In this document: in pieces, positions 3,001 through 48,400 of the stretch
Layout of the letters: every line of letters begins with the position of its first letter
How positions within the stretch are numbered: position 1 is the stretch's first letter
Source: Candidatus Omnitrophota bacterium
Lineage (GTDB): Bacteria; Omnitrophota; Omnitrophia; Omnitrophales; Aquincolibacteriaceae
DNA: 64,000 bases
Assembly (NCBI GenBank): GCA_041674705.1
Contig: JBAYVF010000005.1
Location: 36,645-100,644 of the forward strand
Direction: 5' to 3'
Program-made: the position numbers and the translations under genes
The notes under the pieces: model-generated
Database searches by the model: none
What the model was told of the DNA's origin: nothing
What the model saw: the letters and a program-made list of their open reading frames with translations, nothing else

Positions 3001-6000
3001 TTGGATCATCATGACAAGTGATGTAACTCATGCCCAGACGCTTGCGTATTTTAATGATCGAATGAGGGACGGAAAGTATTTCGGGCTTATTCCAAAGGAT
3101 TGGGTTCGCTTCAAGGAGCAGCGCGTTCTACCCGTCTTTACGGATCGCGGTGAATGGGTCCTGGAAGCAAAAGACAAAATCTCCGTAAGTGGCTTCGGGC
3201 ACGGGGACGCGCGCGAGTGGATCATGATGGATCCCGAGACCCAGGAATGGCTCCGCGGTGTTTTCGGGATCAAGTATGTTGCTGTGGCGAACGTGGACAA
3301 TGCAATGTTGCCGGCCCTTGGTTCTCGAGCCATTGGTTATCACATTCTGGCCACCCGGGATAATGCGCTCGGGGCAGAACCCCTGAGCAAGGTTGTGGTG
3401 GACAAACGAGGCCCCGGGGAAAAGGTCGGTGTTTCGGTCCTTCTTGACGGGAACGACGCCGTGATCGAGTACAACCAATTTACGAGAGACATTCTGACTT
3501 TCAAATATGCTTATGTTTTTGAAAACCGGCGAATCGTTTTCTATAAAGCGGATGACGGGACCTACCAGATCTACGGCTTATCGGAATTTAACGATTTTGT
3601 TAAAGGCACGCAGTCGCTTGCGGCCATGGATTTCAAACAGTTTGAAACGTGGGTCTCCGAGCATCTTGCAAACCTGAATGAGGTCCCGCAGGATGCCAAA
3701 ATTTATTGGAGCGGGGAACCCTATCTGAAGGAAAGATTAAAAGGCCTGAAGTTGTGGCTCAACCTAGGAAGTATTAACGGGCTTATTTGGACTTTGGATT
3801 CTTTCATGAATAAGGAGCACCCTTTGGCGCCTCTTCCGGTGGTCGTTGCCAAGGGAAAAAATGTTGATGGATTCCATCCTGAGAATTTTAAGCCTTACAC
3901 AAAAGACCAAGAGGTCATTAAAGTCAATAAATTCGAGACCATGGCGTTCCACGGATTTTTGAGGGGGCCTTCCCATGGTGCGCACATTCTGGCCCGCCGC
4001 GAAGATGCTTTTTCTCCTATCAAAGAGCCAGAAAAAGAGGGGCCGGATAACCCCGTGGAAGCCGCGCGGATCTATAGTGAAAGACATATCCGCTGGCTAA
4101 GGGGGCGTGTCGACGCTGAAGTCATGCCAGGTGCTGTGGTGGAATTGGCGGATCCTTTCGCGGGAGTCGATGGTAGGGAGCTCTTTCAGAGGATTGGAAA
4201 AGGTTTGTTTCTTTCTGAAAAATCGCAATTCAGCGTTAGCGGTCCGAATACACGTATCGGGCAAAACTTCCGGGTGGAAAATTCGTCTGCTTTTATCTTG
4301 CGTCATGACATCGAATCCCGTTCTCAATCGGAGGTCCAAATTGGTCCTGATGTGACGGTTAAGGCACATGTGTATTTCCGCTTGAAAGGCAATGCGACGG
4401 TCCTGGTGGATCCTGGCGTTGTTTTTAACTATCCCGTGGCCTTTGTGCTGGACGACGGAGAATATCTTCATATCCGGCAGGAGCTTCTGGACGAGGTGTA
4501 CAGGCTTTTGAGCAGCGGAAATGAGGCCGACATATCTCAGGTTTTTGAGATGTATCGGAAAAGCAAGGAAGCTTCCAAAGGAAAAACAGAAGAATCGCGA
4601 ACAGACGGGCAAAAGAAATACGATTCCTTTTTGGTCTATAAGCTGGTGGAGTCTATTTCCAAGCGATTTCCGGATTTTAGCCCTGCCAAGAAAAACGCAC
4701 AGAGGGTCCTCGCGCAGATCGTTGATTGGCAGCTCAAGCTTAAGCCGGAACAAAAAGAGGCTTTGGCACGGGCCCAAGATGTTTACCTTGAAAAATACAA
4801 GGAGCCGATGAGTCCCGCCTACGCGGCCTATGTGACCGCGATGATTCTTAGGGCCGACCGTGAAAAGTTGAAGATCGCGGTTCGTGGTTCTGACGGGAGT
4901 GTGATCGGGGAACAATCCAACTTCGTTCTCGCATCTCAATTGACCGATGAAGAGAAGGAGAGGCTCTTAGGGGCTTTTGACTATAAAACCATTGTCGCAG
5001 ATTCTGAAAACGAGCCGGAGGCCGCCAAAGCTTTTGTGACGATTCATTCCCTGGATGGCGGGTTGGGGGAGAAACTGGTCCGCTATGTTTATAAGCAGAT
5101 TCTTGTCGACGAAAATCTTGTGCCGCGCGAAGAAGTGGAATTTGACGAAAACGGGAAGGTCAAGAACGGAGCAAAGGGGACGGATACCGGCTTTGTGATC
5201 CATCATGAAGGGCAGCGTGTGTTTGTAAGTGTCGCCGAAGTCAAGATCTTGCAGATGATCGAACGGGTGCGGACCGGCAAGATAGGCGGTGTTGGGTTTA
5301 CGCCGCTTGTGAACAAGGATTCCAAGCCTTCTTATGAAAAACTTCTGGATCGCATTTGTCTCGAAGATCGTTTCAAAAGCACCGGGGATAAAAGGACTTA
5401 TCGTCAGCTGCTTCAGGAACTTGGAGCGGAGGTCAATCCTCTTTATCTTCAACAGGACTTACCGGGGATCGATGTGGAGACCAATCGTCCTGCCACAAAT
5501 CCGGACGGTCTTTGGCAACCTGGCGGGCACGGACAGTTGGGTTTCAGTTTCCTTTATAAACCGGAAGATTGGAAGCCCCGCCATGATGGGAAGTTCGACG
5601 TCCTTGCTTTTGTGAACGGGGACAATGTTAACGCGAGTCAGCTGGATCCTTCCATGATCGGGATGATGGCCCGGAAAAAAATGCCGGTTGTCAAACTGAC
5701 AACCATGGCGATGCCGATCGATAAAAAAGGCGGGAAAGATGGGCTCTTGCTTGAAAACGGCAGTTTGAGAATCCCCCAGCAGATGGAGATCGCGGATGCT
5801 CAGGCATGGGGGAAGACCGAAGAAAATCTTTTTATTAAAGCTGGCCAGGAAGAAGGCTCCAAAATCTTCGGTGCAACCTCTGTCGGGAACCAGCCTTTCA
5901 ACACCAATACGATCTATGTGGTGAAGGATTTTCTGTTTCCACTGCTGGCGGAAGTCAAAAAACTTTTGGGGGACGAACGCTATTATGCGGAAGTGATCGC

Positions 6001-9000
6001 GCCGACACTGATAAGCAAAGATACAAAAAAAGCCAAGGATGGGCGTAATTACAGGCCTCTGGATGCGGCGATCGGAACGGTTATCCACAACATGAACGAA
6101 TTTTTCCTGAGACGCTTAGCGGTTCCCACGGGATGGCGTTCTATTGAAGACAAAAAAATCGCTGAGGTCATGAAAAAATACAGGTATGACCGGGTTCTTT
6201 ACTTTTTTAACGTACCCCGGAGATTTTTTACGCCTCAAAAGAACCCGTTGGATGCCTATCTGCAGGCCTACGGCAATTATTTCAGTTTGGACCAAAAGGT
6301 CTGGATTTTGAGGGAAACATCTGAAGGGCTTGTTCCTCCCGAGTTTTCTGTTACCGCGCGGCAGAAGGCGAAGCCTGATGATGAGCGTGGTTTTTCATTC
6401 GATTCTGGGAAAGGTTATTGGAGCGAACTTCAGAACGTGATCGATTCGTTCGGAAAAAATTCGGATTGGTCATTTTTGAAAAAACTCGATATCGACGGGG
6501 ATGTTTTGATTCGGGATGCCGTTTTGGCTGGAGATATTCATATTCAATCGGCCTTTGACGGCGTCTTCGCTCTTGACCAAGCTCCCGAAATGCAGCCGTT
6601 GCGAGGTGCCGATGGCCGTATTCGATTGAAAAACATCAAGGTGAGCATCTCGAAGCAGGGAGGGGTCTCTGTCACTCCGCGTTCGGAAATGCGGACGGGG
6701 AATGAGCTTGAGAGAGCCATTGCCCTCAGCCAGTTAGCGCTTTCGGAGCTTAAGCGGGATCTCAAAGAGGCCAAGAAGGCGGGGACTCTGGCCTTAATCC
6801 CGGGTCTGGAGCAAACGATCCGGCAAAAGGTGAATGACATTGTTCGGTATCAATGGACATTGTCGGAAAACACAGTTGTTCAAGAGATCGTTCCGGAAAT
6901 GATGAAGAAAATTTCTGAAAGAGAAATGGCTGTTCAAAAGAAGGATCTGAATAAGGCCGCACGCCTTGAGGTGGAACGGGCCTACTATGCGATAGCTCCC
7001 GTGGCTATTTCCATGGGGGTTGATCCGATCGGCATGTTGCGATTCTTATATGGGATGGTACCTCTTAGCGAAGATCCGAATAAGAAGTTTATGGATATTT
7101 ACGCGGCGTTTTTAACCGGGGACCAGGACAAGATCAAAGCTTCGAACCTTCAGATCATTGGCCGGCCCATCAAGGATCTGGAAACGGCCCGTGAAATCTT
7201 TGCGGAAAAATTCGCTCCCTGGATCGCTGTTTTGCTCGAATTGCCCAAAGAAAAGAGTGCCGGGGTCAAGGTTTTCGCCCTCAAAAATTTTCTAGGGAAC
7301 ATGACAGGTTTTTATTTCGGGAATCGTGAAAAGGCCCTTCTCCCGGAGGCGGGGCGTCTCTTGACTGCGTGGGACAACTGGGTGAATCCCTCCAGAGTTC
7401 TCCCTGTGGCTCCTAGCATGCTTCAAGTGGGCGGGCTTAAGGTCGTAGTGCCGAACGTCTCGAAAACTATTCCGCCGCAGCAGCGCCAATCGTCGGCGCG
7501 TGCCGAGGCGAGAGATACTGAAGTCGATTATTCTGCCATCGAAGAATCCGTACAGCAGTTGAGGTTCGAAGGTGCCGAAGCCCGTCGAAGGACCCTCCTT
7601 GAAAAGCTTGTGGCTTTGTCCCTTGGCGCGCTTTACAAACCAACCCAGGTAGAATTGACGCCGGGAGCATTGAGAGAACTTGGAAAGATCTTCGGGAAAC
7701 TGCCGTCTGAGTTAACGCAAGAATGGTGTTTTGGCTTGATGCTGATGGTGGTGAGCCAGGGCATTCCTGCGAAAGGGGAAATATACGAACGTCCGGAAGT
7801 GCTTATCACGTTCGTTTCCGAAAAGTATCGGCTTGGTGCCGGTAAGGAGATCGCAACGGATGAGGCTTTGGCGAAGTTTATCCAAGCCGAGCAGGAAAGG
7901 ATCTCCAAAGAAGCAGCGAAGATCCGGGTACTTGAAAAACGTAAAAATTCCAGCCGCTCCGAAATCCGGGGTGGCGACAACGGTTATACAATTGAGTCGT
8001 TGACGCCCAGAGAACAGCTGGTTCGGGGGCAGATCAAGCGGGAAATGATAGAAAGAACGGCGTCGCCCAAGATCTTATGGTCCCAGGGAGAATTGAAGAA
8101 TTTAAAGACGCTGGAAATAGAGGCCTTGAAGATCTGGACGCCCCGGTTGTATGTTTCTGGGAAGCCGGATGTCCAAAGAGCCAAAGCCACTCGCGATCGG
8201 TTGCGTGAAAATTATTACAGCTATGACGTGCAGGTTGCGGCGCATATGCTGAAAAAAATGGCCCTTGAACTAAGCTATGAGGAAATCAATGAGCAGCTCA
8301 CCCGGGAGCAGCTAAAAGAAGTGACGGAGGTTTTGAGCGCGGCCGTCCACAATGGTGAGTACCTCCAGGATCACCGGGTGAGTTCTTGGGGGCATTATGA
8401 TCAGCTGAAGCTTATCGCAAGTTCGCCCGCCTACCTTAAAGATATTTTGAGGAAGTTAAAGGCTCTTTATGAACATGAAGCTAGGCTCGCGGCCTCAAAA
8501 ACAAGCCGAGCCGAGGTTCGTGCCGTTCCTGCGATCTCGCAGGCCACTGTCATGAATTCGATGAACAGGGAAGAACGGCCATTCGATCTCCGCAGCGTTA
8601 CGCAGTTATCCTTTTTGAATTACCTCAAACTGCGTTTCGGGATTCTGCCGCAAGCCATGGCGGAAGCGCTTTCAAAGAGCTTCACGAATGTTCGCGGAAT
8701 AGTGAATCGGTTGATGACCCATGCGGGCATTGCGGCGCCGGCTGTGGCCTCCAAGACAGCTGAGAGTGCCAATGCGGTGAAGATGAAATCAGCTCGTGCG
8801 GTCTTTGGTGAAACGACGCTCAACAAGACCTCCGATGCGTTCATTATTGGCGCGACGTTTGCATTCGATCGTTGGGCGATCGCGGCGATGCGCGCGGTTT
8901 TTGGCGATGCTTCGATGGTCGTACTGGTCCGAAATGACGAGGATCGGGCGAAGCTTGCAAAGATGAATGCCGAACTCGCAAAGGCGGGGCGGCCTGAGAT

Positions 9001-9262
9001 CCTGCAAGCAGAGGATTCCAATGGGGTGAAGGCGTTCATGGCTCAGGAGAAAGTTCGTCAGCGCGGTATCGGCCGCAACCTGAGATTTAAGGCGATCGTG
9101 GACGTAAACGATCCGATGGCGATCGCGCTTAAGGAAATGATCCCGGATTTTGTCTGGGTCAACGATGGGAACTTCGGAAGTTTCATGTTCCAGGCCGGCG
9201 AAGCGATCCGGATGTTGGTTGCCGACTTCCAGAAGAATTTCGCCCTCGCCAAATCCGCGTAA
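11..9262 (+). CDS. Giant (3,083 aa) membrane-anchored multidomain protein: 4 predicted TM helices, GNAT-like fold, two UDPGP-family (eukaryote-type UDP-sugar pyrophosphorylase) domains, long helical C-terminal modules
   Basis: Single uninterrupted ORF. LELAGGSGSRLG..IMTS..GHGD..NVDN..EKVGV (aa ~915-1140) and SLDGGLGEKL..PGGHGQ..NGDNVNA..KKGGKDG..FNTNT (aa ~1680-1960) match UDPGP-family signatures. VGPDYEGRYIGSALL (aa ~670) resembles GNAT motif A. Hydrophobic pairs lie at aa ~211-277 and ~434-480. An RBS-like AGGGG (3-7) precedes ATG 14, but the frame is also open to position 2, so the N-terminus could lie upstream. Confidence 0.85.
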   Translation: MMDRMKDSVLEHFKGRSDFAYAPDWEADYEAGMKPYTLINIEGVSHLLTPMGEIFWGQSNTSPKVAFGAQSTSAENTRKLAGIVAALMIHAREEVAPQAPKLHPLETSELFKAWLPETHKLSYADFSKTTEGASGKTYEAWQSNGLEANVLAAYPTAEAALSEFTARAEIRDLDNEASEFFIDDKKPAHEDKQPATIYYHTPKEMTSSPSYGVITFLSGIAVLFVVVGLIAGLVAVAKGMNNPIYGAGDPMARMILWTAGGVLIVAAVIAAWMWHGFSKQKNYEMMGPTTLKGPITPENQPYSFTEQPSKAPEKVGSPERSEARSSLRTERSREAAPVRAEMRNFESMIEKHLSSDFGMKVFWDVVWAEMNRNEGMNPLDPSRTFQQWVLEADHADELVDVVEATGEISLRLKKALDSQKNLAAQEESRRFKNKILFGGAAAAVILANVVFLKIISPGLALHFLSPAVSLLLLALLMPENIYIRKSLSLEDAVRRPKLIEHYSPLILTAFEQARKEMFRIVREESDERERHSPVLEAWVRQTRPDEVKRAEMRDIEADLAQIPEPLRTNVREFLTLGEADAEGWQGSKSLLMRCAKGSLFRFDLGVRTIANGSERWVKIDVTDITPGTDQKEVGFYKFRMGLPVGGKIVAIGEYDMDAERQQEHEPTMRVGPDYEGRYIGSALLVLGLYLAKKYGNESFIARDIVAKGFFDANHMGFSPNGNGWESIFDLVEMPLPKLPSLKPQDPIRVKLNREIAHWKNRYASIAGSKNREYGFNISVRRFEKIDLTMEKVYGDPLLNEEERVIVAKAIAFGKGGIFHFWKELDKAAKRRLLDQLNAIDRIDIRLNIQTSRTGIESLQELFQKFIINGEAGADLKPAPEQIQAPGMFDLADENSPQAMEAIMLGDAARSRGEVAVLELAGGSGSRLGFDKPKIEYPASPIRHKSLGRLRAEKIAAYAQDALRLGAFLTKVPHSGQEAEEMAAGLKKASAKTGIPIPWIIMTSDVTHAQTLAYFNDRMRDGKYFGLIPKDWVRFKEQRVLPVFTDRGEWVLEAKDKISVSGFGHGDAREWIMMDPETQEWLRGVFGIKYVAVANVDNAMLPALGSRAIGYHILATRDNALGAEPLSKVVVDKRGPGEKVGVSVLLDGNDAVIEYNQFTRDILTFKYAYVFENRRIVFYKADDGTYQIYGLSEFNDFVKGTQSLAAMDFKQFETWVSEHLANLNEVPQDAKIYWSGEPYLKERLKGLKLWLNLGSINGLIWTLDSFMNKEHPLAPLPVVVAKGKNVDGFHPENFKPYTKDQEVIKVNKFETMAFHGFLRGPSHGAHILARREDAFSPIKEPEKEGPDNPVEAARIYSERHIRWLRGRVDAEVMPGAVVELADPFAGVDGRELFQRIGKGLFLSEKSQFSVSGPNTRIGQNFRVENSSAFILRHDIESRSQSEVQIGPDVTVKAHVYFRLKGNATVLVDPGVVFNYPVAFVLDDGEYLHIRQELLDEVYRLLSSGNEADISQVFEMYRKSKEASKGKTEESRTDGQKKYDSFLVYKLVESISKRFPDFSPAKKNAQRVLAQIVDWQLKLKPEQKEALARAQDVYLEKYKEPMSPAYAAYVTAMILRADREKLKIAVRGSDGSVIGEQSNFVLASQLTDEEKERLLGAFDYKTIVADSENEPEAAKAFVTIHSLDGGLGEKLVRYVYKQILVDENLVPREEVEFDENGKVKNGAKGTDTGFVIHHEGQRVFVSVAEVKILQMIERVRTGKIGGVGFTPLVNKDSKPSYEKLLDRICLEDRFKSTGDKRTYRQLLQELGAEVNPLYLQQDLPGIDVETNRPATNPDGLWQPGGHGQLGFSFLYKPEDWKPRHDGKFDVLAFVNGDNVNASQLDPSMIGMMARKKMPVVKLTTMAMPIDKKGGKDGLLLENGSLRIPQQMEIADAQAWGKTEENLFIKAGQEEGSKIFGATSVGNQPFNTNTIYVVKDFLFPLLAEVKKLLGDERYYAEVIAPTLISKDTKKAKDGRNYRPLDAAIGTVIHNMNEFFLRRLAVPTGWRSIEDKKIAEVMKKYRYDRVLYFFNVPRRFFTPQKNPLDAYLQAYGNYFSLDQKVWILRETSEGLVPPEFSVTARQKAKPDDERGFSFDSGKGYWSELQNVIDSFGKNSDWSFLKKLDIDGDVLIRDAVLAGDIHIQSAFDGVFALDQAPEMQPLRGADGRIRLKNIKVSISKQGGVSVTPRSEMRTGNELERAIALSQLALSELKRDLKEAKKAGTLALIPGLEQTIRQKVNDIVRYQWTLSENTVVQEIVPEMMKKISEREMAVQKKDLNKAARLEVERAYYAIAPVAISMGVDPIGMLRFLYGMVPLSEDPNKKFMDIYAAFLTGDQDKIKASNLQIIGRPIKDLETAREIFAEKFAPWIAVLLELPKEKSAGVKVFALKNFLGNMTGFYFGNREKALLPEAGRLLTAWDNWVNPSRVLPVAPSMLQVGGLKVVVPNVSKTIPPQQRQSSARAEARDTEVDYSAIEESVQQLRFEGAEARRRTLLEKLVALSLGALYKPTQVELTPGALRELGKIFGKLPSELTQEWCFGLMLMVVSQGIPAKGEIYERPEVLITFVSEKYRLGAGKEIATDEALAKFIQAEQERISKEAAKIRVLEKRKNSSRSEIRGGDNGYTIESLTPREQLVRGQIKREMIERTASPKILWSQGELKNLKTLEIEALKIWTPRLYVSGKPDVQRAKATRDRLRENYYSYDVQVAAHMLKKMALELSYEEINEQLTREQLKEVTEVLSAAVHNGEYLQDHRVSSWGHYDQLKLIASSPAYLKDILRKLKALYEHEARLAASKTSRAEVRAVPAISQATVMNSMNREERPFDLRSVTQLSFLNYLKLRFGILPQAMAEALSKSFTNVRGIVNRLMTHAGIAAPAVASKTAESANAVKMKSARAVFGETTLNKTSDAFIIGATFAFDRWAIAAMRAVFGDASMVVLVRNDEDRAKLAKMNAELAKAGRPEILQAEDSNGVKAFMAQEKVRQRGIGRNLRFKAIVDVNDPMAIALKEMIPDFVWVNDGNFGSFMFQAGEAIRMLVADFQKNFALAKSA

Positions 9263-9267
9263 CGCAG

Positions 9268-9366
9268 GACATAGTACTTTGTACTTGGTACATAGTACTT
9301 GGCATATAGCAAAAAACTTCCCCCATTTTGTTTTGCTCCAAGTACCATGTGCTATGTACTATGTGC
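9268..9366. repeat. Heptamer-array hairpin, ACATAGT/ACTTGGT word family, copy 1
   Basis: Left arm 9268-9310 reads acatagt actttgt acttggt acatagt acttggc atatagc. Right arm 9335-9366 is the imperfect complement. Loop ~24 nt. Starts 6 nt after the giant-ORF stop. Confidence 0.75.
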
Positions 9367-9437
9367 TTTCATTTCAGTCCCTTCATTGCTAAAATACTCT
9401 CCAAGTTTGTAACCCGTTGAATCAAGGGGGGATAGCA

Positions 9438-10652
9438 GTGTTTCCATCCGTCAAAGAGCAGCTAGAGGTTTTTAAAGAAAATCTCGTCGAGCTTATCTCC
9501 GAGCGTGAGCTGACGATGAAGCTTGAAGCTTCCCTCAAGAATAAATGTCCTCTTCGTATCAAATACGGCGCCGATCCTTCGGCCCCCGATCTTCATTTGG
9601 GGCATACGGTCCCTCTTCGTAAACTTCGACAGCTTCAGGATTTAGGTCATCTCGTCGTTTTCATTATCGGCGATTTCACCGCGCGTATTGGGGATCCTTC
9701 CGGGAAATCGGAAACGCGGCCCATGCTTTCCGAAGAGCAGGTTCAGACGAACGCCAAAACCTATCAGGAGCAGGTGTTCCGCATCCTCGATAAAAAGAAG
9801 ACGGAGGTGCGCTACAACTCCGAATGGCTGGGTACCATGAGTTCCGCGGATTTTCTCAAACTCACGGCGCAGTACACGGTCGCCAGGATCCTTGAACGCG
9901 ATGATTTTTCAAAGCGCTATAAATCAGGGGAGCCCATTGCGGTCGTGGAGCTTCTTTATCCCCTCATGCAAGGCCATGATTCCGTGGAGATCGAATCCGA
10001 TATCGAGATCGGCGGAACGGATCAAAAATTCAATCTTCTGGTCGGACGGGAACTTCAAAAGACCGATGGCCAGGAGCCTCAGGTTGTGATGACGCTTCCT
10101 CTGATCGAAGGGTTGGATGGCGTTCAGAAGATGTCAAAAAGCCTCGGAAATCATATTGCGCTGAAAGACAGTCCCCGGGAAATGTTCGGCAAGGTGATGT
10201 CAATCCCGGATGCTCTGATGGAACGGTATTACCGGTACGCGGCCGCGCTTTCTCCCAAAGAAGTCGAAAAGATCCTCGCAAGTCTAAAAAACGGAGAACT
10301 CCATCCTCGCGACGCCAAGGCGCAACTCGCGGAGCGGATCGTGTCTCTTTTTCATTCGGAAGCGGAAGGAAAAAGCGCGCGCGAAGAATTCGATGAGATC
10401 TTCAAGAATAAAGGCATGCCGGATGAGATCCCCACCGTCAAGATCGGTCAAAAGACGATCGATATCGTGAGCCTCCTGGTCGAGGCGGGGCTTGTGACGA
10501 GCAAATCCGAAGCTCGTCGTCTTATGGAACAGGGCGGGGTGAAGATCGGACACGAAAAGATCACGGACCCGAAGGCGGTCATGACGATCGGAGCGCCGTT
10601 TGTTCTCCAGTGCGGTAAGCGGAAATTCGTAAAGATAGTAAGTAGTATGTAG
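9438..10652 (+). CDS. tyrS: Tyrosyl-tRNA synthetase
   Basis: HIGH-type motif (DLHLGH), KMSKS (KMSKSLGN) and a C-terminal S4-like domain. The ORF track starts at TTG 9417; GTG 9438 is preferred because AAGGGGGG sits at 9424-9431. Confidence 0.93.
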
Positions 10653-38928: not shown

Positions 38929-39164
38929 AATGGGGCATAATGTAGCACAGAGCAAAAAATAGGGAAAGGGGAAAAGCCCTTTTAAGCCGGAGAGGCGGAG
39001 GGAGGCTGGTGGATGACGCCCGCCCCGTTTTTTTCACCATCCGCCTTCCGCCATTCTTCTTGAATTGCCGTCTCTTGGCATTCAGACGAAAAGTGAGTTC
39101 AAGATACGTTGCAGAGTGTGATTTATTTCTTGATGCTCCTATTCAAAGGAGATATCATTGCCGC

Positions 39165-39635
39165 ATGAGCGAAAAAGGAGTGGGTCTGATTGAGATCGTG
39201 GTGAGCATGATCCTCCTGGCGGTTTGTGTCCTGGCGGCGACGGCAACGATTTCCATGGTGAGCGGCAAAGAGCATAGAAGTGCCGGTGGCAGCAGTCTGG
39301 ATCTTCAAGCCCTGAGCTTTGCGAGAGAAACGGTCGAGCAATTGAAAAATGCTGTGAGTACGAACTCGACGACCGCGTTAAAATTAAGTGATAATAGTTA
39401 TACAGCTCCATGCGCCACGGCGATAGGGGTTCCCTGCGGAGCTGGACAGGTACACTCCACCGAAGGGCTCCCCTTGACAGGACTTCCTGCGGGGAGTGAT
39501 CTTCTGACCAAAGTGAGCGGTACCAGCACCCGCACTTATAAGGTCTGGGACATTTCCAGTGGGACCAACACTGTGGGAACTGATGTGGCCTACAAAAAAG
39601 TGACTGTGACTGTGGCATGGACCGATCCCGCTTGA
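39165..39635 (+). CDS. Prepilin-type N-terminal domain protein (minor pilin, PilV-like position)
   Basis: MSEKG|VGLIEIVVSMILLAV: short leader, Gly -1, Glu +5, hydrophobic helix. The ORF-track start 39009 is rejected. Confidence 0.75.
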   Translation: MSEKGVGLIEIVVSMILLAVCVLAATATISMVSGKEHRSAGGSSLDLQALSFARETVEQLKNAVSTNSTTALKLSDNSYTAPCATAIGVPCGAGQVHSTEGLPLTGLPAGSDLLTKVSGTSTRTYKVWDISSGTNTVGTDVAYKKVTVTVAWTDPA

Positions 39636-39640
39636 AAAAC

Positions 39641-40216
39641 ATGGAAAGAGGGTTTACCCTTCTCGAACTTATTATTGCTGTAGCTCTCGCTGTCATTATC
39701 CTGCTTTCCGCTTCCACTCTTTTGATCCATTTCGGGAAATTTTCAGTGAATGTCGTCAAGAACGAAGCCTCTCTTATGGGGACGGCACTCGGTGCTTTCG
39801 AAGAAATAACCGGTAAGATCACGGAAGCCAATGAGGTAGCCATCAATAAAGCCAGCCCCGATGTTATACTCAATTCCATTGCCTATCCTGCGGGTTGCTT
39901 AGCCAATGGTAGTTGTATTCAAATAAGAGTCAGTCCCACGGGCTCAGGAGCTTCTTCCGATCATTCACTCGATACGGTCTACACTTATTGGCAGTCCGCA
40001 ACTCGATTATTTAAATCCGTAGGTGCGGCGGCGGGGACCGCGATCGCGGAAAATCTTCTTGCCAATTCTTTGTCCTTTGTCAGGGATGCGACCAACAGGA
40101 ATCACATCAAAGTTACTTTGAAGGCTGAGACGACGGGGGGGCACATTGCCGGCGTGACAAAGGAGCATTTGGAAACTACAGCCATCATGCGGTCAAGGAG
40201 CGCAAATTTAACATGA
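39641..40216 (+). CDS. Prepilin-type N-terminal domain protein (minor pilin, PilW-like position)
   Basis: MERG|FTLLELIIAVALAVIIL is a canonical class III signal. Confidence 0.8.
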   Translation: MERGFTLLELIIAVALAVIILLSASTLLIHFGKFSVNVVKNEASLMGTALGAFEEITGKITEANEVAINKASPDVILNSIAYPAGCLANGSCIQIRVSPTGSGASSDHSLDTVYTYWQSATRLFKSVGAAAGTAIAENLLANSLSFVRDATNRNHIKVTLKAETTGGHIAGVTKEHLETTAIMRSRSANLT

Positions 40217-40542
40217 AAAGAGGATTCGCATTGATCACGGTTTTGGCGGTTTTGATGCTGATCGCGTTGGGCACTGCGACCATCCTTCAATCGGTGGGAA
40301 CTCACACTAGCCTGAAGGCAAAAAACGTCCAGGAGGTCAAGGCCCAGGACCTTGCCGAAGCCGGCATGCAACATGCCTTGCAGATATGCAGAAAAAACAA
40401 CGGGGACTGTTCTTTAGCGAACATCACTCTCCTGAAAGCGGACACGCTCCTGGAACAAGACATTAAAATCACAACGGTTCCGGCAACTTCCGGGGCAGCA
40501 TCCTACACGATCAAAGTAGAAGTCAACTATCCTGATGTTTGA
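40213..40542 (+). CDS. PilX/GspK-like pseudopilin (no Glu +5)
   Basis: MKRG|FALITVLAVLMLIALG N-terminus. Start overlaps the upstream stop. Confidence 0.7.
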   Translation: MKRGFALITVLAVLMLIALGTATILQSVGTHTSLKAKNVQEVKAQDLAEAGMQHALQICRKNNGDCSLANITLLKADTLLEQDIKITTVPATSGAASYTIKVEVNYPDV

Positions 40543-40589
40543 AATGGCAGAGTCCCGCAAGGGAATGCCCTAAGGAGGGGAATGTGATC

Positions 40590-41000
40590 ATGAAAAAAGG
40601 GTTCACGCTGGCTGAGCTTTTAGTAACGATCGTGATCTTGTCCGTTCTTGCGGCGATCGCGATTCCCGGATTTTCCAAGTCAAGGGACAAAGCCGCGGCA
40701 GCTCAGGCGGTTGCCTATCTCCGGACCCTCAGAGTCGGCGAAAAAATGTATTATGCCAAGAATGCGATTTATGTGGGTTGCGCCAATGCCACAGCCGTCA
40801 AGACCAATCTCGGGGTTGAGGTGACAGAAGAGAATTACAAATTTAATGTGTTGGCCCCCACCAATTCAACTTTTTTTGCAAGAGCACGCAAGGGCACGGC
40901 TCCTACCGATTGCACTTCCACCGATGTGATTTGCGTCGATCAGACTGGAAATTGGTCCGGGACTTCGACTTACGTGAATTTCACAAAGCTCAACAGCTGA
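40590..41000 (+). CDS. Type IV pilin-like protein (PilA/PilE-like)
   Basis: MKKG|FTLAELLVTIVILSVLAAIAIPGF. AAGGAGGGG RBS at 40572-40580. The ORF-track start 40539 is rejected. Confidence 0.82.
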   Translation: MKKGFTLAELLVTIVILSVLAAIAIPGFSKSRDKAAAAQAVAYLRTLRVGEKMYYAKNAIYVGCANATAVKTNLGVEVTEENYKFNVLAPTNSTFFARARKGTAPTDCTSTDVICVDQTGNWSGTSTYVNFTKLNS

Positions 41001-41044
41001 TCGTGCGTGTTTTTTAAATCACAAACCATATCCTGAGGTGAAAC

Positions 41045-42343
41045 ATGGTTTACAAAAATATTTTAGGGATTGTTTCCATTTCAATTTTCATGGTTGCCTC
41101 CATCGCGTATGCCGGCAAAGTGGAACTCACCACTTACTATCCCGCGCCGTATGGGGAGTATAAGGAACTAAGAACCACAGAAAATGCTTATTTTGGGACG
41201 GACGCCCCGACCGCTAAAAGACCTAGCCAAAATACAGACTGGACGATGGCTAGATTTGTCGGTATTGGAACGACGACCCCGAATGAAGCCCACTACAAAG
41301 GGAACGGCCTGACCGTCCAAACGATTGGTAACCCTTCTTACCTGGAACTCTATCGAGACGATAGCTTTGTTGCTTCGGGTGCTGGCGATGGGGGCGTGGG
41401 GTGGGACTCTCTCGTTGGCGCGTGGCGGGCCGGGCATCGTACTAACTCTGCTATCGCCGGGATCGACTTTCTGACCGGCGCGACAGAGAAGTCTGGCGCG
41501 ATCGTATTCAGAGTCTATAAAAGAACATCCGCCACTACTTCGTATCTTAGCGATTCTGTAAATGAAGCCATGCGTATCGATGACTATGGGAACGTCGGCA
41601 TCGGGACGGATGATCCAATTGCCATGCTTAATGTCGCTGGAGTTACGGCATTACAATCAGGAGACTCAAACGGCGCTTTGCAAATTGGCGCCGATGTGCT
41701 GGCGACAACGCTTACGGCTAATGTCAGAAAATTGGGGAGAGTTACCTCTCCCTCCTATAGCAAGAATTATTACTATTCATTGTTGTCCGCGGATAGTGAT
41801 GTCGGTGGCGACGGGGTTGAATTTGGAGGCCGGGCAGGAGCGCTTAACCCGTCTCCCACTTATATTACTTTTGCCACTACATCTGTAAGAGGAGATCAAA
41901 CTAAAAATGCAGAACGTATGAGAATTGATACTAATGGCAATGTCGGCATCGGGGTGGCTCCGTCGTCGACGTATAAGTTAGATGTTGCCGGAACGCTACA
42001 CAGCACTACGGTTCCCTGGACTTCTTCGGATAGTCGCTTCAAAAAGGAAGTGACTCCGCTTACGGGGGCACTGGCAACGGTTGAGCGTTTGCAGGGCGTC
42101 AATTTTGAGTGGAGAGTTGAGGATTTTCCAAGTCGCGGGTTTGAGAAGGGAAAGCAAATCGGGTTAATTGCCCAAGATGTTGAAAAAGTCGTGCCGGAAA
42201 TGGTTAGCACGGACAAGAGCCCCGAAGGGTATAAATCTTTGGCTTATGAGAAAGCTATTCCCATCTTGATTGAAGCCGTTAAGGAACAGCAGCAGCAAAT
42301 CGATTTATTGAAAAAGGAAATTGCGGAACTGAAAAAGGGTTAG
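41045..42343 (+). CDS. Secreted tail-fibre-like protein with C-terminal intramolecular-chaperone (Peptidase S74) domain
   Basis: Signal peptide ..MVASIAYA|GK. The C-terminal 106 aa (nt 42023-42340) carry SSDSRFKKEV, LQGVNFEW, GLIAQDVEKVVPEMV and a terminal coiled coil, all hallmarks of the endosialidase/tail-spike chaperone domain. Confidence 0.8.
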   Translation: MVYKNILGIVSISIFMVASIAYAGKVELTTYYPAPYGEYKELRTTENAYFGTDAPTAKRPSQNTDWTMARFVGIGTTTPNEAHYKGNGLTVQTIGNPSYLELYRDDSFVASGAGDGGVGWDSLVGAWRAGHRTNSAIAGIDFLTGATEKSGAIVFRVYKRTSATTSYLSDSVNEAMRIDDYGNVGIGTDDPIAMLNVAGVTALQSGDSNGALQIGADVLATTLTANVRKLGRVTSPSYSKNYYYSLLSADSDVGGDGVEFGGRAGALNPSPTYITFATTSVRGDQTKNAERMRIDTNGNVGIGVAPSSTYKLDVAGTLHSTTVPWTSSDSRFKKEVTPLTGALATVERLQGVNFEWRVEDFPSRGFEKGKQIGLIAQDVEKVVPEMVSTDKSPEGYKSLAYEKAIPILIEAVKEQQQQIDLLKKEIAELKKG

Positions 42344-42383
42344 GGCGATTCGGAGTTTCTCTGAGACCCGGAGTTGCCCGTAA

Positions 42384-42421
42384 CGGGGAAGGCACCTCAT
42401 GGAAGCCTTCCCCGTTTTTTT
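42384..42421 (+). terminator. Rho-independent terminator after the tail-fibre-like gene
   Basis: 10-bp stem cggggaaggc / gccttccccg, 11-nt loop, then ttttttt. Confidence 0.8.
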
Positions 42422-42436
42422 GTTCTTTTGAGTTTA

Positions 42437-42465
42437 TTGACATTCCCGAAATGCTTTTGTATGAT
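42437..42465 (+). promoter_or_regulatory. Sigma-70-type promoter (TTGACA-N17-TATGAT)
   Basis: TTGACA 42437-42442, 17-nt spacer, TATGAT 42460-42465. Confidence 0.6.
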
Positions 42466-43822: not shown

Positions 43823-45364
43823 ATGGAAGAAAACATCGTCGTTCTGGATTTTGGATCGCAGTACACGCAGCTAATTGCTCGCCGTGTCCGTGAGAATAAG
43901 GTCTTCTCAAAAGTCCTTCCGTTCAATGCGCCGCTTGAAAAGGTGCTTGCTGAAAAGCCCACAGGCATCATCCTTTCCGGGTCGCCCGCCAATGTGTACG
44001 CCAAGGGTTCTCCGATCCCGGATGAACGGCTTTTGCTTTGCGGGGTCCCCATTCTCGGCATTTGTTACGGGATGCAGGTGACGGCGCACCTCTTTGGCGG
44101 TCGCGTTCACAAATCCAATAAACGCGAATATGGATTCTCCGAACTCCAAATCGACAAACTCCAAAGCCCTCTTTTTAAGGGACTCCCGAAACGACTGACC
44201 TGTTGGATGAGCCATGGGGATAAACTCGAGCGTCTTCCCAAAGGATTTGAACGCCTTGCGCATACGGAAAACGCCCCGTTTGCGGCGATGGGCGATGCCA
44301 AGCGAAAGATCTATTGCATCCAGTTCCATGCCGAAGTCGCGCACACCCCGCTTGGTTCCAAGATCCTCAAGAATTTCCTTTCCCGCATTTGCGGTTGCCG
44401 GATGACCTGGACGCCGGAATCCTTTATTACCGAAAGTATCCGGCATATCCGCCGGCAGGTGGGCAAAGACCGCGTGGTGCTTGGACTTTCCGGAGGCGTC
44501 GATTCCTCGGTCGCGGCAGTACTCCTTCACAAGGCAATCGGTAAAAAACTCAACTGCATTTTTGTGGATAACGGACTCCTCAGGCTTGGCGAAGCGGAGA
44601 AAGTCGAAAAGACTTTTCGCGGCCATTTCAAAATGAATCTCAAGGTCGTCGATGCCGAAAAAATTTTTCTGGACCGGTTGAAAGAAGTGATCGATCCTGA
44701 AAAAAAACGCAAGATCATCGGCAAGGCTTTTATCGATGTATTCACCACTGAGGCAAAAAAACTCGGGAAAGTTCCGTTCCTCGCGCAGGGGACGCTTTAT
44801 CCGGACGTGATCGAATCGGTCTCTTATCACGGCGGACCCACGAGTGTTATCAAGAGCCATCATAATGTCGGCGGTCTTCCGAAGGATATGAAATTCAAGT
44901 TGGTTGAACCCCTGAAGGAACTTTTTAAAGACGAGGTCCGTGCGGTCGGGCGTGCGCTCGGGATCGATAAGGATATTGTCGGGCGTCAGCCTTTTCCGGG
45001 GCCGGGACTTGCGGTGCGTATTCTGGGCGAGGTCCGCAAGGATCGCTGCGAGCTTCTTCGGAAAGCCGACTGGATCGTGATCGATGAAATTAAAAAGGCC
45101 GGTTATTATGACAAGGTGTGGCAATCTTTTGCCGTGCTGCTTCCGATCCAGAGCGTCGGGGTGATGGGGGATGAACGCACGTATGAGAACGCCGTGGCAG
45201 TGCGCGCCGTGACCTCCCAGGATGGTATGACCGCAGACTGGGCGAAACTCCCTCCGGAACTTTTGGGCCGGATCTCCAACCGTATTATCAACGAAGTGCG
45301 CGGCATCAACCGCGTTTGTTACGATATTTCCTCGAAGCCTCCGGCCACGATCGAGTGGGAATAA
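43823..45364 (+). CDS. guaA: GMP synthase (glutamine-hydrolysing)
   Basis: GATase-1 domain, [10 protein letters not shown]-loop, conserved C-terminal ..ATIEWE. Confidence 0.95.
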
Positions 45365-45371
45365 CACCAGT

Positions 45372-45457
45372 GCGGCGTACGGAGTATCGCGTACGGCGTA
45401 AAAGCACAAAATGATTTTAAAGTTCAACGCGAGACGCCGTACTCCGTACGCCGTACG
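45372..45457. repeat. GTACGGCG-word hairpin, copy 3 (guaA-dnaE spacer)
   Basis: Arms 45372-45398 / 45435-45457 are ~19/23 complementary. 36-nt loop. The 22-mer cgccgtactccgtacgccgtac is identical at 43786-43807 and 45435-45456. Confidence 0.8.
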
Positions 45458-45460
45458 AAA

Positions 45461-48400
45461 ATGAGCCACAGCGACTTCGTCCATCTTCATTGTCATACCG
45501 AATACAGTCTTCTTGACGCGACCTGCAAGATCGATGAGCTCATGACGCGCGCCAAGGAGCTTCGTTTTCCGGCGCTTGCCATGACCGACAACGGCAATCT
45601 CTTCGGTGCTATCCAGTTCTACTCCAAGGCCATGAAAGAAGGGATCAAACCCATTATCGGTTTGAGCACGTACGTGGCCCCCGGATCCCGGCTTGAGAAA
45701 CAAGCGCATGGCATCAAGGAAGCTTCCTTCCATCTCACCCTTTTGGCTACGAACGAGAAGGGGTACCGGAATCTTATGAAGCTCGCAAGCATTGGATACA
45801 CCGAAGGTTTTTATTACCGGCCGCGCGTGGATAAGGAAATCCTTAAGGAATATTCGGAAGGTCTGATCGCGCTCTCGGGCGGGCTCAAGGGCGAGGTTCC
45901 GTATTATCTTTATCATGATCAGATGCATGATGCGCGAAAGGTCACGGAGGAATACGCGGGGATCTTTGGCCAGGACCGGTTCTTTCTTGAGATCATGGAT
46001 CATGGGCTGGAACCGCAGAAAAAGGTCACCCTGGGCTCCCAGAAGCTTGCCAAGGATCTCAAGGTCGGCATTGTGGCGACCAATGACGTGCATTACATTC
46101 ATCAGAACCAGGCGATGGCGCATGACGCGTTGATCTGCATCGGGACCGGCGCGAAGCTCGATGAGCCGAATCGCATGCGCTATCAGGGCGATCAATATTA
46201 TCTTCGGTCCGCGGAAGAGATGAAAAGCCTCTTCAAGGATATTCCACAGGCGATCCGGTCCACGATCGAGATCGCCGAGCGATGCAATCTGGAACTCGAT
46301 TTTCACAAGATCTTTTTGCCCCAATTCGCGCCGCCCGACGGAAAGACGCAAGTTCAGTACATGGAAGAGCTTTGCTTCAGGTTCCTGCGTGAGCGTTTTG
46401 CCGGAGAGATCCCTCCCGAATATGAAACCCGTCTTCGTACCGAGATCACGCTGATCAATAAAATGGGTTATATCAGTTATTTCCTGATCGTTTGGGATTT
46501 CATCCGGTTTGCCCGGGAAAAGGGGATCCCTGTGGGGCCGGGGCGTGGATCGGCGGCGGGGAGCCTTGTCGCTTACGCGCTTTACATTACGGACATCGAT
46601 CCCATCAAGTACCATCTTTATTTCGAGCGATTCCTCAACCCCGAACGCGTGAGCATGCCGGATATTGATATCGACTTCTGTTATGAGCGCCGCGACGAGG
46701 TGATCGATTATGTGAAACGCAAGTATGGCACGGCGAACGTGGCACAGATCATCACGTTCGGGACCATGGCGGCCAAGGCCGCGGTGCGTGACGTGGGACG
46801 GGTGATGGGGATTCCCTACGGTGAGGTGGATCGCATCGCGAAGCTGATCCCTCTGGAGCTCAAGATCACGCTCAAGCAAGCCCTGGAGCGTGAGCCTCAG
46901 CTTAAGGAAATGGTGGCCACCGACGTGCGGATGGCGCAACTGATTGAGACTGCCCAGGCCCTTGAGGGGCTCTCGCGCCACGCATCGATCCACGCGGCCG
47001 GTGTGGTGATTTCGGATGTACCGCTCACGGATCATGTGCCGCTTTACAAGACCGAGGACCAGATCTGCACACAATACACCATGAAAGATCTCGAGAAGAT
47101 CGGGCTCCTTAAAATGGATTTTCTGGGTCTCAAGACGCTTACCGTGATCGATGAAGCGGTCAAGATCGTTCAGAAGATGCACGGCGTGAAAGTCGATATC
47201 GCGAGGCTTCCGGAAGACGATCCCCAGACTTATGAGATGCTCGCCAAGGGCGATGCCTTGGGCGTGTTCCAGCTTGAAAGTTCGGGGATGCGCGATCTTC
47301 TCAAGAAAATGAAGCCGAATAAATTCGAGCATCTTGTGGCGCTCCTCGCCCTTTATCGCCCGGGACCTCTCGGCAGCGGCATGGTGGATGATTTCATCAA
47401 GCGTATGAGGGACCCCAAGCTCATCAAGTACGATCATCCGGCGCTAGAACCCAGTCTGAAAGAAACTTACGGCGTTATTCTTTACCAGGAACAAGTCATG
47501 CGTATTGTGAGCGATCTCGCAGGCTTCACGCTCGCTCAGGCCGATTCACTCCGTCGCGCCATCGGGAAAAAGATCCCCGAGGTCATGGCGAAAGAGAAAA
47601 AGGCGTTCATGGATGGCGCGATGAAACGTGGCGCCAAGGAGAAAGTCGCAGAGAAGATCTGGGAGCTCATTGATTTCTTCTCGGGTTATGGCTTTAACAA
47701 ATCCCATTCCACGGCGTACGCAGCGGTGTCTTATCAGACCGCCTATCTCAAGGCGCATTATCCGGTAGAATTCATGACGGCTCTTCTGACCTCGGAAATG
47801 AACAACACCGATAAAGTGGTGCAATATATCGAGGCCTCCAAAAAGATGGGGATCGATGTCCTGCCGCCCGCGGTCAATGAAAGTTTTTCGGATTTCACTT
47901 GTGTGGGAAATCACATCCGGTTCGGGCTCGCGGCCATCAAAAACGTCGGTTCGACCGCCATTGAGTCGATTATCGCGACCCGGCTAAAGGATGGCCCGTT
48001 TAAATCGCTTTTTGATTTTGTTCAGCGTGTGGAGCTTCGGACCTGCAATCACAAGGTGATGGAAAGCCTTATTAAATGCGGCGCTTTTGATGAATGGAAG
48101 CTTCACCGTTCTCAGCTCATGGCGATGCTCGATGGCGTGTTGGATATGGGAGCGAATGTTCAGAAGGACCGAAGCCGCGGGCAGCTTTCTTTTTTTGAGA
48201 ATAGCGGAGGGGAAAGTTTTCATGACCAGCAAGCTTCTGTGCCGGATATTCCGGAATGGCCGGAGAACCAAAGATTGGCTTATGAGCGCGAGCTGATCGG
48301 TTTTTATGTTTCCTCGCATCCGCTTTCCAAATACGCCAAGATCCTGAAAAGTTATGCGACGGCGACCACGGCCAACCTTTCGGAATTCAATCACCAGGCC

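Follow-up and report, generated by a model that had tools for sequence, protein, structure and literature searches.

A tail-fibre-like protein encoded behind a pilin cassette in an Omnitrophota genome is a candidate adhesin for display at a type IV pilus tip

Why should a protein that ends like a phage tail fibre be encoded at the end of a row of pilin genes on a bacterial chromosome? The question is raised by the locus at 39165–42343 of a 64,000-nucleotide (nt) stretch of DNA from a Candidatus Omnitrophota bacterium (GenBank assembly GCA_041674705.1, contig JBAYVF010000005.1, positions 36,645–100,644 of the forward strand), the whole of which we refer to as the window. Omnitrophota are abundant, uncultured and ultra-small, and are thought to be predators or parasites; a survey of the phylum suggested, purely from genomes, that they attach to hosts by type IVa pili and giant adhesins (PMC10066038). 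The locus holds four pilin genes followed by a gene for a fibre protein of 432 amino acids (aa), which has a C-terminal Peptidase_S74 (S74) domain and, directly behind its signal peptide, a short tag with the motif TTYYPAP. We propose that it is a chromosomal surface-attachment cassette in which the tag docks the S74 fibre on a minor-pilin tip, for display at the tip of a type IV pilus. We hold this reading at about even odds (a probability of roughly 0.5), and presentation by a pilus is suggested by gene order and by precedent.

The fibre protein, its TTYYPAP tag and linkage of the tag to pilin genes

The pilin genes and the fibre gene, with the parts of the fibre, are as follows.

39165–39635 (+): pilin 1, PilV/GspH-like minor pilin, 156 aa; leader MSEKG, then VGLIE with Glu5
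39641–40216 (+): pilin 2, PilW/GspJ-size minor pilin, 191 aa; MERG/FTLLE
40213–40542 (+): pilin 3, GspK/PilX-type candidate tip-capping subunit, 109 aa; MKRG/FALIT, Glu5-less
40590–41000 (+): pilin 4, major-pilin-like subunit, 136 aa; MKKG/FTLAE
41045–42343 (+): fibre protein, 432 aa; signal peptide, tag, shaft and Peptidase_S74 domain
41045–41113 (+): Sec-type signal peptide, fibre aa 1–23, ending AYA/G; n-h-c layout by sequence reading
41114–41170 (+): TTYYPAP tag, fibre aa 24–42, GKVELTTYYPAPYGEYKEL; proposed anchor or docking peptide
41171–42022 (+): hypervariable shaft and tip, fibre aa 43–326; three GNVGIGTxxPxxxL capping-loop-like motifs
42023–42343 (+): Peptidase_S74 intramolecular-chaperone domain, fibre aa 327–432 and stop; Ser328/Lys333, terminal helix

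A preliminary description of this DNA had placed a signal-peptide protein of 432 aa 44 nt downstream of pilin 4 and had read S74 hallmarks in its C-terminus, and both readings were borne out. The open reading frame (ORF) at 41045–42343 starts with a signal peptide whose AxA cleavage site is conserved among fibre homologues, and AlphaFold2 (AF2) places a helix over aa 3–18. The Pfam model PF13884 matches aa 328–387 (E 3.4e-15; 56.5 bits, cut-off 22), and the strings SSDSRFKKEV, LQGVNFEW and GLIAQDVEKVVPEMV are all present. The S328-D329-S-R-F-K333 segment contains SDxxxK, the motif of characterised S74 proteins (PMC10769870), and its residues S328, D329 and K333 are invariant in 10 full-length homologues (A1) and at least 90% conserved in 50 (A3). 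The AF2 monomer of the whole fibre is of moderate confidence (predicted local distance difference test, pLDDT, 69.5), with the tag and mid-shaft poorly defined; pLDDT is > 90 for aa 330–432, where a terminal 30-residue helix spans aa 401–431. Searched with Foldseek against the PDB, the fibre matches the MyRF ICA (7DC3, TMt 0.74), T5 pb1 (4UW8) and the endosialidase IMC (3GW6), the latter two both with probability ≥0.95, as well as four mosaic adhesive trimeric (MAT) fibres of Bdellovibrio (Bd2133, Bd1334, Bd3182 and Bd2439). The best PDB match by sequence is Bd2133 (8OND, phmmer E 5.4e-6), over the capping-loop repeats 'ERMRID..GNVGIG...KL.V.G'. Apart from S74, the Pfam scan of the fibre gave a weak SlyX match and no PilY1/PilC propeller domain. 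Taken together, these results indicate that the fibre is a genuine S74 tail-fibre-like protein with a Sec-type signal peptide.

The tag follows directly on the signal peptide and reads GKVELTTYYPAPYGEY. All full-length relatives share the arrangement of a signal peptide ending AxA and then G-K-V-E-L-T-T-Y-Y-P-A-P-Y-G-E-Y, with T30, Y31, Y32, P33, P35 and Y39 invariant. No Pfam or NCBIfam model matches the tag; PF26696, which is precomputed for some relatives, was not found by our own Pfam scan. A scan for the motif found 417 relatives among metagenome contigs and none in 2.9 million viral contigs, and a profile search of 1.84 billion cluster representatives returned 5,371 proteins with E ≤1e-3, of which 356 reached E ≤1e-10. 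Among the 150 tag matches listed, the match lies at or near the N-terminus, starting within the first 54 residues of proteins of 56–451 aa. Where a source is named, it is almost always Omnitrophota/Omnitrophica. The tag is a cellular rather than a viral module, and the TTYYPAP module is new, a family of thousands of clusters that has no database model.

Pilin-like ORFs in the loci (numbered with the prefix L below) were recognised by a strict pattern for class III signal peptides. The 68 distinct tag loci contain 23 of them, every one upstream of the tag gene and on its strand, with no case downstream or on the other strand. For this polarity the nominal binomial P is 1e-13; the ORFs fall in about ten clusters, which makes a value of ~1e-6 more realistic. 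Pilin-like ORFs reach a density of 7.8 per 100 kb at tag loci against 0.42 per 100 kb at control S74 loci, and the gaps between pilin and tag genes are often < 130 nt. The preliminary description had looked to a linkage of S74 and pilin genes in relatives, and this is kept in the nearest relative (L087), whereas S74 relatives of other phyla are mostly without pilins: 80 genome loci of S74 relatives, mostly from Bacteroidota, hold 4 pilin-like ORFs in 941 kb. A general co-occurrence of S74 and pilin genes was rejected on this count, and the linkage belongs to the tag. Two minimal tag proteins (described below) that were picked for their long contigs both stand behind pilin clusters, and tag proteins also come after pilin clusters of other composition, in L101, L124/L130, L135, L163/L164 and L179. 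A reverse, word-indexed search from pilin 3 homologues gave 6 matches with two informative contexts, L171, whose contig ends after pilin 3, and L172, to which we return. Collectively, the conserved partner of the pilin cassettes is the TTYYPAP tag, not the S74 domain.

The cargo behind the tag varies. S74 is present in about 1/6 of the tag ORFs of the fetched loci, some others have a dockerin, and most have no known domain. A minimal form of 71–89 aa with the consensus ...YGEYKDL.A...LKVPVKT...GEIWVE is very common; AF2 models the mature part of one such protein as an extended coil with no globular fold, and this predicted shape fits a peptide that folds on a partner.

Several of these loci are of interest in their own right. 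Tandem arrays of three or four TTYYPAP proteins of 418–515 aa, without S74, are found in L157 (4190–8440), L168 (1807–7322) and L137 (6998–11117), and the two array members scanned (from L157 and L168) have a type I dockerin directly behind the tag, at aa ~71–122. A minimal TTYYPAP protein is followed by a large signal-peptide protein in L175 (7001–7228, then 7236–9926; 8-nt gap, 896 aa) and in L164 (6986–7240, then 7186–9006; 55-nt overlap, 606 aa). These minimal proteins have 75–84 aa and end GEIWV(E/Q); the 606-aa protein of L164 has a Pfam Glug match, and the 896-aa protein of L175 has similar GGLVG repeats and a Cys-rich C-terminus. Such pairs may represent the fused fibre divided into an adaptor and an adhesin. 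In L135 (158–4455) a pilin gene is followed by a prepilin peptidase-like ORF (recognised by eye only), three more pilin-like ORFs, a GNVGIG-repeat fibre-like protein and a TTYYPAP protein; this cluster is possibly from a candidate-phyla-radiation bacterium.

The pilin cassette, its island and its transcription unit

The four prepilin-type N-termini named in the preliminary description are all present. Pilins 1, 2 and 4 have class III signal peptides (a short basic leader up to Gly, followed by a hydrophobic alpha1-N helix with Glu at +5), and direct reading of the sequence shows Thr at +5 in place of Glu5 in pilin 3. With a Pfam cut-off of 21.2 bits, the N_methyl match lies above threshold for pilin 2 (23.5 bits; TIGR02532 23.9 bits) and pilin 4 (30.7 bits; TIGR02532 33.3 bits) and below it for pilin 1 (18.4 bits), and pilin 3 has no N_methyl match. 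Matches to the types of the core H-I-J-K minor-pilin set, from NCBIfam, are all sub-threshold: a weak match of pilin 1 to PilV (TIGR02523, 23.3 bits) and of pilin 3 to the GspK N-terminus (26.7 bits). Pilin 4 has sub-threshold PilA/GspG-type matches in the same database, and its best PDB sequence matches are the major-pilin N-terminal halves Geobacter PilA-N, Thermus PilA4 and Myxococcus PilA; the PDB sequence search gave nothing for pilin 3. Pilin 2 has an alternative ATG at 39617, and its end overlaps the start of pilin 3 by 4 nt. Pilin 1 has orthologues in L087 (69% identity), L110, L141, L164, L171 and L175. Glu5 is also missing from pilin 3 of the island orthologues L087, L091, L110, L117 and L172, and likewise in L164 and L179, the L179 counterpart having a PilX_N match; minor-pilin tip complexes are capped by a subunit that lacks Glu5 (review PMC10191384). 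We class pilins 1–3 as minor-type (PilV-like, PilW-like and a Glu5-less cap type) and pilin 4 as major-type. Of the pilV-pilW-pilX-pilE-like order suggested earlier, the minor-pilin-like row with its Glu5-less third member stands, but pilin 4 resembles major pilins and is not clearly a PilE. No further pilin-like ORF was found elsewhere in the window.

The cassette occupies an island that related genomes share, between LpxD/SurA genes (LpxD 81–93% identical) and an IMPDH-like gene (87–93% identical). Its order is pilin 1, pilin 2, the Glu5-less pilin 3 and one to three copies of pilin 4 (two in L087, L172 and L175; three in L141), and the cargo that comes next differs from genome to genome.

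Window: 432-aa S74 fibre
L087: 380-aa S74 fibre
L095: 270-aa S74 fibre
L110: lipoprotein-like gene, then a tag protein of at least 227 aa (contig ends within it)
L141: two minimal tag proteins
L175–L178: 75-aa tag protein; a ~900-aa GLUG-repeat protein comes next in L175, L178 and two DNA-less contigs, not in L176 or L177
L172: none

The presence of the fibre varies between close relatives, and the fibre is an exchangeable accessory, because L172 has the pilin cassette without a fibre gene. Compared with L087, the pilins are 45–69% identical and the fibre 51% overall (60% at the N-terminus, 10–30% in the middle and 83% in S74), and the adjacent IMPDH-like protein is 92% identical. At the sequence level, this divergence is the signature expected of a fast-evolving, presumably exposed cassette with tip swapping.

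The five ORFs of 39165–42343 are co-oriented on the + strand and either overlap or are separated by gaps of ≤47 nt. The 44 nt from pilin 4 to the fibre gene have no structure (minimum free energy −2.1 kcal/mol), and a GAGGTG ribosome-binding site precedes the fibre start. On the + strand, a consensus scan showed neither promoter nor terminator separating the fibre gene from the pilins, in agreement with the preliminary description, which had treated them as one operon ending in a shared terminator. That terminator is present behind the fibre gene, and the next promoter follows closely.

42382–42423 (+): intrinsic terminator; hairpin 42382–42416 with ~14 paired bases, then U7
42437–42465 (+): sigma-70-type promoter of the downstream IMPDH-like gene; TTGACA-17-TATGAT, 11/12 consensus positions

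An 87-nt stretch with the terminator folds at −41.9 kcal/mol (z = −5.3). The promoter of the IMPDH-like gene and ~60 nt of flanking DNA are kept across related loci (L095, L175) despite their differing cassettes (alignment A5), and this promoter marks the 3′ boundary of the cassette. We also considered this conserved DNA past the terminator as an RNA element and rejected the idea, since an Rfam scan of 38–43 kb matched no RNA family and the DNA is the promoter. A candidate promoter before pilin 1, at 39130–39158, was set aside as well: it matches only 9/12 consensus positions and lies too near the start codon to convince. From the operon-like layout, the pilins and the fibre gene are predicted to form one transcription unit closed by one strong terminator.

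Mounting of the fibre on a pilus and rival explanations

In the mechanism that we propose, the fibre would be exported by Sec, as is usual for its family, and its C-terminal S74 domain would drive homotrimerisation in the periplasm, as in characterised S74 proteins. The domain would then cleave itself off at Ser328, exposing the mature distal end of a trimer of ~300 residues per chain, whose variable distal part would bind a ligand on another cell. Gene order suggests that the tag peptide (GKVELTTYYPAPYGEY) would be the proximal anchor, and the site to which it attaches would most likely be the minor-pilin tip complex, because tag genes recur just downstream of pilin cassettes. The fibre would then be taken out through the secretin and presented at the type IV pilus tip, playing the part that PilY1 has on type IVa pili and TcpF/CofJ have on type IVb pili. 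With one tag common to such different cargoes as S74 fibres, dockerin proteins and minimal 71–89-aa forms, the pilus would be a common mount for exchangeable adhesins.

Two proteins, each from another lineage, join a pilin module and an S74 domain in one chain. P0102, a 650-aa protein from an unclassified metagenome-assembled genome (MAG; L003 6244–8196), starts with a class III signal peptide and a pilin module of ComGF/GspJ-like type (N_methyl 27.1 bits), continues with a GNVGIG-repeat shaft and ends in S74 (62.6 bits). A 634-aa ORF from an Oligoflexia MAG (L062 6831–8735) has a pilin-like N-terminus (SG/ISLIE..., a motif match with no Pfam match), YadA-head repeats (Pfam 40 bits) and, at its C-terminal end, an S74 domain (58 bits). 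As judged from their domain order, these fusions indicate that pilin subunits can carry S74-matured trimeric modules. The L062 ORF also combines trimeric-autotransporter head repeats with the lack of an autotransporter anchor. In L003, P0102 is followed by a second S74 protein (8264–9493), whose N-terminus is a transmembrane-like segment with 'SWNPPTASPPNPAGQ', a different motif; a similar one, AWSEPTQSPPGGNVPTPLNTG, occurs in L135. In a Bdellovibrio MAG (L056 5414–9333) two pilin-like ORFs lie ~4 kb downstream of an S74 fibre gene, and one of them is a 1,010-aa putative modular pilin (N_methyl 20.3 bits).

A number of observations weigh against display on a pilus. A pilin gene ends ≤1.5 kb upstream in 9 of the 48 evaluable tag loci, which leaves ~80% without an adjacent pilin. 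Many tag genes are solitary or tandem (L001, L002, L055, L137, L157, L168), and several tag-bearing S74 homologues are stand-alone. L172 (1–1900) has pilin 2, pilin 3 and two copies of pilin 4 and reaches the IMPDH-like gene with no tag or fibre gene in between. Several of the linked loci are orthologues of one island, which reduces them to about six independent locus types. In L095 (469–653) pilin 4 and the S74 fibre gene are 185 nt apart, and within this gap lies a strong perfect hairpin (GTAGGTCACATTTAAATGTGACCTAC), which could be an attenuator or a terminator and is absent from the 44-nt gap of the window. None of PilB/C/D/M-Q/T is encoded in the window. Finally, trimerisation, autocleavage and surface location of the fibre are predictions drawn from its homologues.

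The first three of these observations equally favour an autonomous, MAT-like adhesin of the outer surface, whose tag would be held by some other component of the envelope and whose adjacency to pilins would come from co-regulation or from clustering in a hypervariable island; the anchor of a MAT fibre, moreover, need not be a pilus (PMC10769870). We regard this explanation, the strongest of the rivals, as possible though doubtful. Clustering in an island alone would hardly produce the strict upstream, same-strand polarity of all 23 pilin-like ORFs or the short gaps, the pilin–S74 fusions show that such fibres can be pilin-borne, and the short tag, unstructured in the model, resembles a docking peptide more than a membrane or lipopolysaccharide anchor. 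Release instead of display would be expected if the pilins built a short pseudopilus like that of the type II secretion system (T2SS), or a secreting type IV pilus, with the tag as secretion signal and the tag proteins as released substrates. TcpF and CofJ provide the precedent (PMC9565799, PMC6048534), the HIJK tip complex of the T2SS contacts substrates (PMC10191384), and the diverse cargo, the weak GspK match of pilin 3 and the GspG match of pilin 4 would all agree with it. We nevertheless think this unlikely: a trimeric fibre with an adhesive tip would be of little use once released, the minimal 71–89-aa tag proteins have no obvious secreted function, and no gspD/E/F genes were found nearby in the window.

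Two further explanations would make the adjacency meaningless. The pilins could belong to a DNA-uptake (competence) pilus or another non-adhesion pilus, with the fibre gene beside them by coincidence, as a weak ComP_DUS match of pilin 4 (22.3 bits) and a ComP_DUS match recorded for its L172 orthologue might suggest; the former lies below the cut-off, and the adjacency recurs with fixed polarity in differently composed locus types, so that we consider this very improbable. Least credible of all is that the fibre gene is a prophage remnant or a recently captured phage tail-fibre gene, functionally unlinked to the pilins. The C-terminal third of the fibre does match many tail-fibre families (phrog_5668, E 1.5e-30), and an identical protein, recorded from a Candidatus Omnitrophota MAG, is named 'tail fiber domain-containing protein' at NCBI. 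However, the PHROG matches are limited to aa ~195–431 and always to the C-terminal ends of those families; the protein starts with a Sec signal peptide, the scan of viral contigs did not find its tag, which is almost confined to Omnitrophota-labelled sources, and the gene keeps its position in relatives. The genomic context, taken from precomputed Pfam calls and two direct scans that cover 9.4–64 kb of the window, is one of housekeeping genes: TyrRS, an ABC transporter, IleRS, Lgt, menaquinone genes, Mrp, FolE, LpxD, and SurA-like, IMPDH-like, GuaA, DnaE, DnaG, RpoD and pyrimidine genes. In this region we found neither phage genes nor pilus-machinery genes, as the preliminary description had also stated, and the guanine-plus-cytosine content is flat across the window. 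A prophage origin was rejected on the strength of the housekeeping neighbours, the lack of phage genes and of a composition shift, and the absence of tag relatives from viral contigs: the fibre gene is chromosomal and not part of a prophage.

Two other ORFs of the window may be mentioned here. A 3,083-aa ORF at 11–9262 (+), which may run past the window start, has as its sole domain match a UDPGP-type nucleotidyltransferase region (aa 911–1159), beside a faint membrane-protein match; Omnitrophota have been noted for giant ORFs with poor annotation (PMC10066038). A 1,176-aa ORF at 43907–47437 (−) runs antisense to guaA and dnaE and is most likely a non-coding shadow ORF.

The locus offers a concrete candidate for host attachment: a short invariant tag on thousands of secreted proteins, fixed behind pilin cassettes, with a cargo that includes predicted self-maturing, phage-like fibres and with a cassette that evolves far faster than its housekeeping frame. 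Tiny, possibly predatory Omnitrophota cells may in this way mount swappable adhesins on a pilus. Docking of the tag at the pilus tip would give the 'non-pilin tip effector' principle of PilY1 and TcpF a new modular form, would mean that a retractile bacterial filament had come by convergence to use the receptor-binding hardware of phages, and would hint at where to seek the anchor of the Bdellovibrio MAT fibres. As a tentative extension, in which we place rather limited confidence, the TTYYPAP peptide might generally direct proteins to the tip of a type IVa-like pilus, as a docking or secretion signal, and be the counterpart of the TcpF/CofJ signal of type IVb systems. One pilus would then bear swappable cargo, from S74 fibres and dockerin proteins to minimal caps with GLUG-repeat giants; this retractile pilus would become a phage-tail-like organ of host recognition, and the pilin–S74 fusions of Oligoflexia and of the unclassified MAG would be a covalent version of the same device. 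Should the tag not dock, it would still be a large undescribed N-terminal module that deserves a family definition.

Comparison with known systems

The nearest analogues of the fibre itself are the S74-type MAT fibres, which sit on the surface of Bdellovibrio bacteriovorus (Caulton et al. 2024, PMC10769870). The preliminary description had called the arrangement in the window an unusual surface-attachment device; bacterial-surface S74 fibres are known from this work, and what is unusual is the possible coupling to a pilus. Like MAT fibres (e.g. Bd3182), the window fibre is chromosomal, has a Sec signal and resembles a phage fibre that would be trimeric, with a C-terminal S74 SDxxxK chaperone-protease, repeated VG..P...L capping loops, a variable tip and a constant N-terminal module. 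The N-terminal modules differ: in MAT fibres this is a ~130-aa domain, conserved and rich in beta structure (LTYQGRI...), as in the Bdellovibrio ORFs of L054, L077 and L082, whereas the window fibre has the ~20-aa TTYYPAP peptide. The three Bdellovibrio N-terminal domains align with one another (E 1e-15 to 1e-66), none of them aligns with fibre aa 1–60, and TTYYPAP does not occur in them; membership of the MAT family proper was rejected on this difference. The window fibre is also much shorter (432 aa versus 1,236–1,556 aa for these ORFs) and its gene closes a pilin operon at the 3′ end, while no pilin linkage is reported for MAT genes. The MAT study leaves the surface anchor of the fibres unidentified and mentions a possible interplay with type IV pili (PMC10769870).

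Phage S74 fibres such as the K1F endosialidase, T5 pb1 and the S16 long tail fibre share the C-terminal chaperone fold and the catalytic motif. Unlike them, the window fibre is without a virion-attachment N-terminus or a phage context and has a signal peptide and a cellular tag instead. Among pilus proteins, PilY1/PilC, whose gene lies in minor-pilin operons (fimU-pilVWXY1E), is a tip adhesin of type IVa pili that is not itself a pilin. PilY1 and the window fibre are alike as signal-peptide proteins encoded with core minor pilins; they have no sequence or domain similarity, and the fibre gene follows a major-like pilin, unlike the order at PilY1. PilY1 is not known to be a homotrimer. Homology of the fibre to PilY1 was rejected, as there is no Pfam match. 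PilY1 caps the HIJK minor-pilin tip complex and has a proposed adhesin role (PMC10191384).

TcpF of Vibrio cholerae and CofJ of enterotoxigenic Escherichia coli are secreted by means of a signal at the N-terminus, which binds to the minor pilin of the tip (PMC9565799, PMC6048534), and the TcpF homotrimer hooks its flexible N-termini onto the TcpB minor-pilin trimer (PMC9565799). The window fibre is like them in being predicted to be Sec-exported, in being encoded in a pilus operon and in having a short flexible N-terminal peptide as its proposed recognition element, and a trimer on the pilus tip, as for TcpF, is what we propose for it. Unlike these type IVb proteins, it stands with pilins that are type IVa/T2SS-like, with no large minor pilin of the TcpB/CofB type and no sequence similarity; TcpF and CofJ are released, whereas the window fibre would probably stay attached. 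Modular type IV pilins are represented by PilB and PilC of Streptococcus sanguinis (PMC8179133). The P0102 and L062 fusions are modular pilins of this kind and embody the same idea, an adhesive module grafted onto a pilus; the window fibre is not a modular pilin, having a Sec rather than a class III signal peptide, and its attachment would be non-covalent.

Collectively, the ingredients of the locus are already known: bacterial S74 fibres, non-pilin tip effectors and modular pilins. What is new is their combination, together with the fixed position of the TTYYPAP tag behind pilin cassettes in a hypervariable island.

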